Shown here in pieces: positions 6,372 through 55,760 of a stretch of DNA of 64,000 bases. The stretch comes from a virus. The notes under the pieces were generated by a model. It searched no databases. It was not told the DNA's origin and saw only the letters and a list, made by a program, of their open reading frames with translations. Where the stretch lies: IMG/VR virus record IMGVR_UViG_3300036715_001140, positions 64,001 to 128,000 of that record; one strand, given 5' to 3'. The stretch's first letter is position 1. Each line of letters begins with the position of its first letter. Position numbers and translations under genes: made by a program.

Positions 6372-9300
6372 TCAGGCACATTCAGAATATCCACATACGT
6401 GGCATATATTACATCCACCTTCATGCTCTACAATTCCACCGCACTCAGGACAGGCACCACGTTCAATAGTAGCTTTGTGAACTTTGTCAATATGTCCTAC
6501 CTCAAGTAGATGCAGTTGAATAGCCTTAGCAACTGCATCGGAACAGGATAGAATACGATTATCGCCAAATCCACTAGGGATGTGACAAGATATACCAAGT
6601 AATTGTTTAACTACTTGTTTGGCTTGCACACCTGTTCGCCAGTTAAGACTAATCATGCGTCCCAAGGCTTCAGCTTGAGAAGCTGCACATCCTCCAGCCT
6701 TACCCATAGTAGTAAACAGTTCAAAAAGCCCATCTTTATCTTCATTTATTGTAACATAAAGTGGACCGCAGCCTGTTTGCATTTGGTAAGTAGCACCTTT
6801 TAGAGCTTTAGGCCGTTCTTTTACTCCGCTATCTACTTTTTCTTCTGGTGTATTTTCTACTTTAGTTATAGTAGATAATACTTGTTCATCTCTTGATCCA
6901 TCACGATAAATCGTAACTCCTTTACAGCCTGTTTTATACGCCAGCATGTATACTTCTTCTACATCTTTAATAGTGGCACTATTACAGAAGTTTACTGTTT
7001 TAGAAACAGCATTATCAGTGTACATCTGAAAAGCTGCTTGCATACGCACATGATACTCAGGGCTAATATCATGAGATGTTACAAATACTTTACGAACATC
7101 TTCTGGAATTTCAAGAATGTTCTGAATAGTACCATGTTCTGCAATTTTTTCCATTAGCTGTGGTGAATAGAATCCACGTGACTTAGCTATATATTCAAAC
7201 ATAGGATTTACTTCAATTAGACGGGTTCCATCCATTACTGTTTTTACATAAGATACTGCAAATAATGGCTCAATACCTGATGATGCATTTGCTATCATGG
7301 ATATTGTTCCAGTGGGAGCAATAGTTGTAACAGTAGCATTTCTCATGTTCTTGTCAAAGATAGAACCTTTAATGTTAGGGAATGATCCACGTATTTTTGC
7401 TAGTTCTAATGATTTTAAAATAGCGTGATCTTGAATAAACCGCATCACATCTTTTGCGAGATTTATAGCTTCTTCAGAGTTGTATGGGATACCTAACAAG
7501 ATAAGCATGTCTGCCCATCCCATTACACCTAAGCCAATTTTTCTATTTGCTTTAGTCATTTCATCAATTTGCTTTAAAGGATACTTATTTACTTCAATAA
7601 CGTTATCTAAAAATTCTACAGATAAATTTACTATTTCTTTTAATCCTTCATAATCAATAGTAGAATTTACTACAAATTTGGATAGATTAATAGAACCTAA
7701 GTTACAACTTTCATAAGGTAGCAACGGCTGCTCACCGCACTGTCCAGTCATAATGCCATTAAAGATACCTGTATGCTTTTTAGGCTCAGTAAAGCAATAA
7801 ACTGTATTTTCTTTTTTATTTCTTTTTATAATGCTTGTAATAGTTATAAACCTAGAGGCATCCCTATTAGGCTCTTTATCTTCAATTTTGACCCGATTAA
7901 GCTTGAGTCCCAAATCTAACAATTTAAAAGTATTAAACTTGTTAATAGCAAGTCTATAACAATCTTGTACGTTATATTTTTTAGGCTCTCCATTAGTATC
8001 TGGTAGATAAGAAATACCTGCTTCTTTTCCAAGACTTAGCGTTGAGAAACAACCTAAAGTAGAAAGCATCAACTTTACGTCAGACAAAAATGCCCTATCT
8101 ACTGACCAAATAGTAAGCCCATTCTCATTCTGATAGGAGCCATCACTATCAACTAACCCAGCAAACCAACTAAGACGAGTATCAACTGTATATTTACTTG
8201 ATGGAACCCAACATTTATCTCGTACAGAGAATGCCGTTTCTACCATAAGTCTATTCTGGCGGTCATTACTACAGTCGATACATTTTTTTATTAGAAGCTT
8301 GTCTTTAAGTTTAATCTTGTCTTCATATAACCAAATATCATTATGACCTTTACTTCCATCTCCACTATAAAAACCTTGAGTATAGGCTTTCTTAGATTTT
8401 ATTTGCTTAATACCCTTAATGATGGGAAAACTCCACTTTTGAAGTTTTGCACCTTCTTCTAATTCTTGAGCTTCACGTTTAGACCCATCAGCTAATACAA
8501 ATTTATGCTTTGGGGTACAAGATAAACAGGAGCCATCTGAAAATTGAATTTTAAGAATATTTTGGTTATATCCTGTAATCTCAGGTATAGTCGTAGACCA
8601 TTCTTCTCCATTCCAGATCTTTGTTTTCTTGCCTACTCTGGAAGCAATTTTCTTATAGCCCTTCTTGGTAAGAATAAGAGTGTCACCTGTAACACATGGA
8701 TTTGTAGACTCAATCTCACCAATATGTGGAGTAGGATTATCTTTATTTATTCTATCTAAAAATACTATTCCAGGTTCACCGTTTCTCCATGCTTGTTTCA
8801 CAATAAGGTCAAATACTTCTTTTGCATTGAGTACTCCTACTTCTTTTTTATCTCTCGGATTATATAGTTTATACGTTTTATTAGTCTCTACAGCTTCCAT
8901 AAATTTTTCTGTTATCCCAATAGAGATATTAAAGTTATTTAAAACCTTCATATCATCTTTACATTTAATGAAACTCATAATATCGGGATGATCTACTCTA
9001 AGTATACCCATATTAGCACCACGTCTTGTGCCACCCTGTTTGATACATTCAGTAGCCTTATCAAAAACACTCATAAAAGATATAGGCCCACTCGACACAC
9101 CACTTGTAGTTTTTACTAAGTCATTAGCTGGGCGTAGACGAGAAAATGAAAATCCTGTCCCTCCTCCACTCTTATGGATCATAGCCGTATGTTTAATAGT
9201 TTCAAATATCTCTTCAATAGAATCACCTACAGGTAGAACAAAGCAAGCGCTTAACTGGCCCAATTCACGCCCTGCATTCATTAATGTCGGGCTATTAGGC

Positions 9301-27173: not shown

Positions 27174-27249
27174 TGGAGTTGGCGATAGGACTCGAATCTG
27201 CAGTCTACTGATTACAAGTCAACTGCTCTACTAATTAAGCTATACTAGC
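27174..27249 (-). pseudogene. degenerate tRNA-Thr(UGU)
   Basis: 76-nt cloverleaf layout with loop CTTGTAA and CCA end, but three acceptor-stem mismatches and a broken T-stem. Confidence 0.7.
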
Positions 27250-28015: not shown

Positions 28016-28455
28016 TGGTGGAGGTGGAGGGCTCCGACTCCCTCGTCTTGCATATGCATCCATAATCACATCTACGCTAATAGCTTCATTTAATTTAAAC
28101 ACTGGAGTAATAGAAGCCTAAACTATCCAGAGTCGATTAAGTTTTATGCTGAAAACTTACAAACAGGTTCCTCTTGTTAGCTACACATAACTTACCGAAA
28201 TGTGATCTTCTGTTACTCAGCGAAGGTTTACTAAGAGTATCTTCCTTTACTGTACCTACGATTCTACTGTAGGAATTTGTTACTTCTAAGCTGCTGCCAA
28301 TTGGTCGAAACCATAGTTGTCAGCAGTGAAGAAGCCTTTTACTTTTTCAATTACAGTGTTTGCATTTATTGTTTAGTGGATTATTAATGAGGCCAACCAC
28401 AATCCTCATAGCGCAGTAATTACTTTACATACACAATCGAATCCAATTCACCCCC
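28016..28455 (-). ncRNA. ssrA: tmRNA
   Basis: 5' GGGGGTGAATTGGATTCGA; 3' GAC-GAGGG..CCCTC-CACCTCCACCA with G3.U70 Ala determinant; resume context ATAAAT-GCA; tag ANTVIEKVKGFFTADNYGFDQLAAA* at 28363..28286. Confidence 0.93.
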
Positions 28456-54967: not shown

Positions 54968-55043
54968 GAGTTGGTCGCCTCCTTTTAGGAATTAGTAGAT
55001 CGAATGAACGCTCGATCTGATGCGTTTTACTCTTGAAAAAATA

Positions 55044-55120
55044 TGGTGGGCCTTCAGTGATTTGAACACTGTACCGTCCGGTTATGAGCCGGATGCTCTA
55101 GCCAATTGAGCTAAAGGCCC
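55044..55120 (-). tRNA. tRNA with CAU anticodon, probably tRNA-Ile2 (lysidine) rather than Met
   Basis: GGGCCT acceptor stem, TCCGG-CTCATAA-CCGGA arm; paired 1:72 excludes initiator. Confidence 0.88.
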
Positions 55121-55167
55121 TGATAAGTTGCTCTGGTTACAAAGGATGAGAATGTAAACTTATAACT

Positions 55168-55506
55168 TGGTGCGGGTGGCGAGACTCGAACTCGCACAGC
55201 CTTTCAGCCGAGGGATTTTAAGCATGTATGTCTGAAAGTTTCCAATCAGCATGGACTATATCTTTACCGCTTAAATTTGATTTAAGTACGGTAGTGGGCG
55301 CTCTAGCCTGTTATTAAGAACACTATAGTTCTCAGGTAGTCTCTGCACCTTCTGTAGTTGTAACTACAGCTTGGCTCAGGGTTAGCATATCTACATAATA
55401 TAGACTTAGCCTTCTCTGAGTTCACCCACAGTTTACTCAACTATTACTAATTGAGGGGGACTAACTTTCTGGTCTTCCCTTGTGTCTGCCATTCCACCAC
55501 ACCCGC
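55168..55506 (-). tRNA. tRNA-Leu(UAA), intron-containing (exons 55506..55476 and 55222..55168)
   Basis: joined exons give a perfect cloverleaf: GCGGGTG/CACCCGC-ACCA, AGGGA-CTTAAAA-TCCCT, long variable arm. Confidence 0.92.
55223..55475 (-). mobile_element. group I intron (253 nt, IC3-like, no ORF)
   Basis: P GAACTCAGAGAA, Q AACCCTGAGCCAAG, R GGTGCAGAGACTA, S AAGATATAGTCC, P3 GTGGGTG/CGCCCAC, terminal G. Confidence 0.92.
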
Positions 55507-55514
55507 ATGAAAAT

Positions 55515-55760
55515 TACGATTTAATCAGATAATTTGAAGTTATCTCTAAATCTGATACCTTGAATAGCGGAGCTAATCCTATAAAACAAATACAAGCGAG
55601 CCTATTTCACTCTAATCCACAAGGCGTGACAGCTAGTACTAGCTGGTGGAATTGCATTGTACTATTCCAACGAAACACTACATCGAGAGGTCATGCTCGG
55701 AAAGATTAAGAAATGCCGTTTCATACCTCAAGTGCGGATTTCTACCGCCGGCATATTCTT
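55515..55760 (-). ncRNA. candidate structured RNA upstream of tRNA-Leu(UAA)
   Basis: no same-strand ORF, GC-richer than flanks, several stems and a possible pseudoknot. Confidence 0.4.

Follow-up and report, generated by a model that had tools for sequence, protein, structure and literature searches.

How does a group I intron define its 5' splice site when the exon in front of it does not end in U? This question is raised by a tRNA-Leu(UAA) gene in a stretch of viral DNA of 64,000 nucleotides (hereafter the window), which a reading made from the sequence alone had interpreted as split by a group I intron between tRNA positions 31 and 32, with an A in the place of the expected U. That sequence-only reading took it as established that classical bacterial tRNA introns follow a U that is paired to a G, and the literature agrees: a U at position -1 together with a terminal G is found in 98.5% of 5292 bacterial tRNA introns, counted as raw calls (Williams 2020, bioRxiv 10.1101/2020.01.27.920355). 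The sole real exception in that survey is Leu.3Cg, a class of 72 genes in Proteobacteria with a C at -1, the splicing of which "needs testing," and no A is reported (Williams 2020). A 2025 intron database demands a U at -1 and terms the U-G pair "completely conserved" (PMC11835236), and in the largest survey of tRNA introns an A at -1 scores nothing. Introns with an A at -1 are therefore filtered out by design. According to a 2014 review, all the phage introns known at that time were in protein genes (PMC3984707). In the literature that we searched, the coverage of which is incomplete, we found neither a published phage tRNA intron nor a natural A at -1.

The interrupted tRNA-Leu(UAA) gene and its setting

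The window corresponds to bases 64001-128000 of a 146.8-kb IMG/VR virus record, which is estimated to be ~54% complete. It is AT-rich, with a G+C content of ~31%, and it encodes ribonucleotide reductase, a Dda-like helicase, and both topoisomerase II subunits, and it therefore belongs to a large phage. With introns allowed, ARAGORN calls a tRNA-Leu(taa) with a 253-nt intron at 31-32; in default mode, the program leaves the interrupted gene unreported. The insert matches Rfam RF00028 with 76.9 bits (cut-off 50, E=9e-18). The earlier proposal of a group I intron in a phage tRNA-Leu(UAA) at 31/32 is thus upheld, with the same junction and exactly the same coordinates. The gene is made up of the following parts.

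55168..55506, minus strand: whole interrupted tRNA-Leu(UAA) gene, including an encoded CCA (ARAGORN with introns; the stems covary across homologues)
55476..55506, minus strand: 5' exon, tRNA positions 1-31, 31 nt, ending ...GACAC-A-AGGGA (sequence, ARAGORN)
55223..55475, minus strand: group I intron, 253 nt, AGACC...CATACATG, with the terminal (omega) G at 55223 (Rfam RF00028, structure test)
55168..55222, minus strand: 3' exon, tRNA positions 32-76, 55 nt, beginning CUUAAAA UCCCU and ending with the encoded CCA (sequence, ARAGORN)

The AGGGA at the end of the 5' exon corresponds to tRNA positions 27-31, and A31, the base preceding the splice site, is at 55476. There is no U in the 5' exon between the D loop and the junction, and the entire anticodon loop is carried by the 3' exon. 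Once joined, the exons form a cloverleaf in the ARAGORN prediction, with the features expected of a tRNA-Leu: A73, a UAA anticodon in a loop of 7 nt that includes U33, and a long variable arm. A31|C32 had been put forward as the only join that leaves both a 7-nt loop and a terminal G, which is borne out, the terminal G being fixed by covariation of P9.0 (see below).

UUA had also been described as a frequent codon, and it is indeed the commonest Leu codon of the phage, representing, over 105 long frames, 47% of Leu codons and 41 of every 1000 codons. Together with a tRNA-Met and a tRNA-Arg, the split gene forms one small tRNA cluster, and it is the sole tRNA with a UAA anticodon in the 147-kb record (itself only ~54% complete), which likewise encodes a tRNA-Leu(CAA). 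The usage of UUA and the presence of a single UAA tRNA fit with a tRNA of importance to the phage. It might be speculated that splicing of the intron gates the supply of the tRNA reading UUA.

Immediately upstream of the interrupted tRNA, 55515-55760 of the window (minus strand) is a stretch of ~245 nt with no long reading frame, in which Rfam at gathering thresholds gives no match. Elsewhere, the window contains a phage-encoded tmRNA at 28016-28455 (minus strand; Rfam, 97.6 bits), which ARAGORN missed both in the window and in the whole record. Adjoining it is a weak tRNA-like match at 27177-27249 (minus strand; Rfam, 36.9 bits; no ARAGORN call), which may be a degenerate or unusual tRNA.

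Homologues, intron structure, and pairing at the splice sites

We scanned IMG/VR, JGI metagenomes, and GTDB genomes with intron-core motifs, which revealed 11 further tRNA-Leu(UAA) loci interrupted at this site by an intron of the same lineage. These are on viral contigs of 5-239 kb (L009, L017, L147, L148, L149, L150, L151, and L153) and on metagenome contigs (L135, L136, and L137). With a pairwise intron identity of 64-97%, all 12 loci have in common the insertion site, A31, and the guide bases U47 and G46. A scan with an 18-base P3 motif alone, which leaves the guide unconstrained, found no member of the lineage with another guide or another site, and this uniformity is therefore not an artefact of the search patterns. 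Other patterns were less productive. The first junction pattern, with GATATAGTC, gave no matches because the relatives have GAGATAGTC, while a loose 17-base pattern gave 106 loci, almost all by chance, with L009 and L017 the only genuine ones. L133 and L134, the sole additions from a P3 16-mer, were also chance matches, as were L152 and L154-L176, and the ARAGORN calls of a tRNA-Ile in L016 and a tRNA-Phe in L017 were spurious. The whole interrupted tRNA has 0 matches among 50,697 GenBank phage records.

The proposed structure was assessed by comparison. In brief, we aligned six complete pre-tRNAs, wrote the helices by hand, and counted the pairs. Standard pairs fill 97.9% of the pair cells, a share that drops to 36-42% if the 3' partners are displaced by 1-3 columns, and 43 of the 81 pairs show a compensatory change on both sides. 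None of 500 shuffles attained these pairing and compensatory values. Covariation is seen in P2, P5, P6a, P8, P9, and an extra hairpin, as well as in the acceptor, D, and T stems of the tRNA, and P3 and P7 are invariant in the six pre-tRNAs. The elements of the intron are as follows.

55457..55462, minus strand: internal guide, in which U47-C50 (55460-55457) pair with A31-G28 to form P1 (covariation)
Within 55457..55462, minus strand: guide A45 and G46 (55462-55461), unpaired in P1, which pair with U33 and C32 to form P10 (covariation)
55463..55474, minus strand: P1 extension hairpin, intron nt 2-4 with 11-13, plus loop (compensatory changes; same layout in the minimum free energy [MFE] folds of 12 loci)
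55436..55455, minus strand: P2 hairpin (compensatory changes in 5/6 pairs)
55294..55429, minus strand: P3 (55429-55423 with 55300-55294), enclosing P4-P6, the P7 5' strand, and the extra hairpin (Rfam alignment, covariation)
55420-55348, minus strand: P4-P6, inside P3 (P5 and P6a covary)
55343-55337, minus strand: P7 5' strand (P7 invariant)
55336-55307, minus strand: extra hairpin between P7 and P3', 30 nt (34-nt insertion in the Rfam alignment; both stems covary)
55253..55292, minus strand: P8 (55292-55266), J8/7, and P7 3' strand (55258-55253) (P8 covaries, P7 invariant)
55224..55252, minus strand: P9.0 (55252-55250 with 55226-55224), enclosing the P9 hairpin (55249-55232) (covariation; all P9 pairs covary)

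The core helices P3-P9 of a group I intron, with the P3/P7 pseudoknot, are thus all present. With an invariant P7, which is the G-binding helix, a terminal G, and a P9.0, the catalytic core is ordinary. The extra hairpin at 55336-55307 holds an invariant UCUUAAUAAC-type internal loop; in one member of the lineage (L136:250-593), there is an insertion of ~100 nt in the loop of this hairpin.

The pairing at the 5' splice site departs from what is usual. In the guide, UUAGUCCCC, C50-C48 pair with G28-G30, U47 pairs with A31, and G46 and A45 pair with C32 and U33. In 12/12 loci, it is an A at -1 that faces a guide U, instead of a U that faces a G, and the guide is kept as G-UCC-N, with an invariant G immediately 5' of U47. 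Position 28/50 is G-C in four of six loci and C-G in the other two (L017 and L135), whose C28 tRNAs have G50 in the guide and G42 in the tRNA. This compensatory change therefore fixes the register of P1, with A31 opposite U47, and it represents one independent event since L017 and L135 share the same tRNA type. An A+.C wobble, in which A31 would be opposite one of five Cs, is ruled out by this register. A pairing of A31 with G46, leaving U47 bulged, is not favoured because U47 is invariant. The invariance of A31 itself is uninformative about the ribozyme since the tRNA also constrains this base (A31-U39). The sequence-only reading had proposed an A-U pair in place of the U.G wobble and had suggested, as a check, that homologues be compared for the 31/32 site and for covariation of the guide. 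The check has now been run: the site is kept in 12/12 loci, guide position 50 covaries with exon position 28, and the register that gives the A-U pair is fixed by covariation across the 12 loci.

At the other end of the intron, P9.0 is formed between the three bases that precede the last G and the three that follow P7', and it covaries across the 12 loci (pair 1: A-U in 4, G.U in 2, and G-C in 6; pair 2: U-A in 8 and G-C in 4). The G preceding C32 is therefore the terminal G, and the intron has before its 3' splice site, together with P9.0 and P10, the omega G of group I introns. In P10, G46 is opposite C32, or forms a G.U pair in L135, where position 32 is a U, and the guide base that follows G46 toward the 5' end, opposite U33, is an A in 9/12 loci. 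On the guide, P1 and P10 directly adjoin each other, as they do in canonical introns, with U47 standing where the wobble G is usual. MFE folds of the twelve P1 regions all have four exon pairs, then 1-3 unpaired guide bases ending with G46, and a short P1 extension. The base that opens the intron differs between loci (A in 4, U in 5, and G in 3 of 12), as expected of a position under no constraint, whereas position 32 is a pyrimidine throughout, which is general among tRNAs. Taken together, three independent lines of comparative evidence (P9.0, P1, and P10) place the junction at A31|C32.

Selection of the 5' splice site

The reading that we favour, with a probability of roughly 0.65, is that of a working group I intron that would splice at A31|C32, where an A-U pair with a flanking unpaired G would replace the U.G wobble. 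Excision between A31 and C32 would produce a normal tRNA with the loop CUUAAAA. The substrate helix is atypical in that the 5' exon closes with a purine, A31, which is matched with U47 of the guide in a Watson-Crick pair, and the one to three guide bases on the 5' side of U47, always ending with G46, are unpaired. After the first step, P10 would arise from the pairing of G46, usually together with A45, with the 3' exon bases C32 and U33. The 5' splice site may be marked by the A-U pair along with the unpaired G next to it, whether or not a protein assists. A more specific proposal, that this is a natural group I ribozyme choosing its 5' splice site without any U.G and using as its mark the A-U pair plus a G that is first unpaired and later engaged in P10, is tentative, and we would put its chances at slightly under even.

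Model ribozymes give reason for caution. The Anabaena tRNA-Leu ribozyme needs a pyrimidine immediately before the splice site, and changing T-G to G-T there abolishes its activity (PMC12355055), while a Watson-Crick C-G pair at the splice site of the Tetrahymena ribozyme inactivates splicing, according to the account cited in Williams 2020. An A-U pair would therefore be expected to work poorly in a canonical core. Removal of the intron at A31|C32 might thus need a protein (a maturase, a chaperone, or a tRNA-binding factor, from the phage or its host), or splicing might be slow and leaky, which we consider unlikely, though less so than the readings that follow. Watson-Crick pairs at the splice site cripple model ribozymes, as just described, and when J4/5 and J8/7 were aligned, there was no clear lineage-specific difference between this lineage and its U.G-using relatives, and thus no sign of a change in the core that would compensate. 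However, the neighbouring frames have no endonuclease or maturase Pfam domain, no such frame lies in or beside the intron, and there is no room for a reading frame inside it. Moreover, the design is kept on contigs that differ greatly in intron and tRNA sequence and that originate in sediment, mat, and further metagenomes, so that any helper would have to be widely shared.

A displaced cut is much harder to defend. Here, G46 would be the wobble G, pairing with what we have called the first intron base, and cleavage would occur one base later, which would produce either an 8-nt anticodon loop or, if the 3' site moved as well, a tRNA with that base at position 32 and an intron ending in C. G46 is invariant and placed where a wobble G is expected, the next base is a U that could form U.G in 5/12 loci, and J4/5 resembles that of the U.G-using relatives. 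Nevertheless, the base in question is an A in 4 and a G in 3 of the 12 loci, including the window, making U.G impossible there, and where it is a U, its partner in the MFE fold is A45, with G46 bulged out. In addition, P10 sets G46 opposite C32 or U32, covariation of P9.0 identifies the terminal base as the G that precedes C32, and the conserved pyrimidine at position 32 would be replaced by A, U, or G. Since the first intron base varies between A, U, and G, a shifted U-G site is excluded, and we regard cleavage one base downstream as very improbable.

We give similarly little credence to a dead gene, in which the intron would have landed at an unspliceable site and the tRNA would be a decaying pseudogene. 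A splice site without a pair that is held to be essential would be explained in this way. Yet, while the introns of the 12 loci differ by up to 36%, the six pre-tRNAs retain 97.9% of cells paired with 43/81 pairs showing compensatory change, these changes include P1, P9.0, and all the testable tRNA stems, and UUA is the phage's commonest Leu codon.

The faintest possibility is that the 5' junction is an artefact of assembly or sequencing, in which a CT or T was lost that would restore a canonical U33 or U34 site, but it has nothing more than the oddity itself in its favour, and the same junction is found at eleven loci from other assemblies. Checking the assembly had been another suggestion of the sequence-only reading. 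Public DNA contigs spanning 55000-55700, separately assembled from four runs (sediment and microbial-mat metagenomes, possibly including the source samples), are identical to the window over this region, with 0 differences and 0 gaps at a depth of 18-38. Among the public runs listed as containing the locus, none was of RNA. An assembly error is therefore unlikely, and since eleven other assemblies show the same junction, the question is settled. These findings confirm that the split gene and its A31|C32 junction are real, precise, and conserved.

If the intron does splice at A31|C32 with an A-U pair, group I catalysis does not universally require the U.G wobble, and this lineage offers a ready natural system for finding what substitutes for the contact made by the wobble receptor. 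A conserved lineage in which -1 is a purine would demonstrate that another way of defining the cleavage site is available to group I ribozymes. Ribozyme engineers working, for example, on circular RNA or trans-splicing would gain a natural template for target sites with a last base other than U or C. Genes of this kind escape standard tRNA finders, as that of the window escaped ARAGORN in default mode.

Relationship to other group I introns

The intron has much in common with the classical tRNA-Leu(UAA) intron. Both are group I ribozymes of ~250 nt, with no reading frame and with a terminal G, both interrupt the same gene with the same anticodon, and both have a guide that uses the anticodon arm. 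In contrast, the classical intron lies between U34 and A35, with a U34.G pair, whereas that of the window lies three bases upstream, at the border between stem and loop, with an A31-U pair. Classical bacterial tRNA introns are of the IC3 class (Williams 2020). The IC3 classes Leu.3Ug, fMet.2Ug, Arg.5Ug, and Ile2.5Ug are inserted within the loop directly after a U, while the window insertion, at position 0 in Williams' numbering, comes after an A. The nearest sequence matches of the window intron are phage introns, not cyanobacterial tRNA introns. Its architecture differs as well since there is a conserved, covarying 30-nt hairpin between P7 and P3', a helix that IC3 introns are not known to have, and the intron lineage may be IA-like.

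Leu.3Cg, the sole reported natural class of tRNA group I introns without a U at -1, is similar to the window intron in that a Watson-Crick pair replaces the wobble. Nevertheless, its exon base is still a pyrimidine (C), which faces the guide G as usual, and the classical site is kept, whereas the window intron has an A in the exon and a U in the guide, which reverses purine and pyrimidine, and its G is displaced by one position.

Closer relatives can form U.G. In L016, an intron of the same family is found in a tRNA-Leu(UAA) at site 25/26, outside the anticodon arm (8115-8364, minus strand), and its guide GUGUC pairs with GACAU25 to give a normal U.G. In L138, where the tRNA is initiator-like, the guide can form U.G with U33 or U36, and eight contigs from Clostridia genome bins (L139-L146) are like L138. 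All these introns have the core sequence of the 31/32 lineage, including J8/7, P3, P7, and the UCUUAAUAAC motif of the extra hairpin, but their guides can make U.G with U25, U33, or U36, whereas the 31/32 lineage has A-U. In a tree of the intron core, based on 174 columns and weakly resolved, the 12 loci with an A at -1 are on one side of the branch that separates them from the initiator-like introns (100/99), and the 31/32 and initiator-like introns are set apart from L016 and non-tRNA introns (91/92). Since the lineage groups with U.G-using introns, the A-U design is probably derived within a U.G-using family, and most likely arose by a move to a new site.

Some of these relatives have features of their own. 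The tRNA hosting the introns of L138-L146 is initiator-like in having C1xA72 and a GGG/CCC anticodon stem. A cut after U33 would leave a CUA anticodon, with a terminal G in two loci only. A cut after U36 would leave a normal CAU initiator, with consistent P1, P10, and P9.0, but in this case the intron would end in A although P7 is unchanged. Directly upstream of the L016 intron is a free-standing frame of 274 aa (L016:8402-9226, minus strand), with weak matches to HNH_3 (23.7 bits) and NUMOD1, which is possibly a homing endonuclease working jointly with the intron.

Among GenBank phage records, the best partial matches are group I introns, found in crAss-like phages and in the psbA gene of Synechococcus phage S-SRM01. 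The introns of crAss-like cr1_1, cr4_1, and cr55_1 and of S-SRM01 psbA have 69-86% identity over the P6-P7-P3' core, and they are Rfam group I matches like the window intron. They differ from it in that several are accompanied by an HNH endonuclease gene and none lies in a tRNA anticodon arm, the S-SRM01 intron being in psbA and the crAss-like copies between annotated genes. In S-SRM01, psbA (encoding D1) is split by two group I introns (L003:1431-1684, 91.9 bits, and L003:1894-2138, 81.5 bits) and a homing endonuclease gene, and one of these introns has 69% identity with the core of the window's. In cr1_1 (L004:2400-3300) and cr4_1 (L005:2364-3300), the intron with the same core comes with an HNH endonuclease gene on the opposite strand, and the host gene that it interrupts, between annotated genes, is not obvious. 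RAGATH-22 and RAGATH-9 RNAs are found ~0.7-1.5 kb upstream of the cr1_1/cr4_1 intron.
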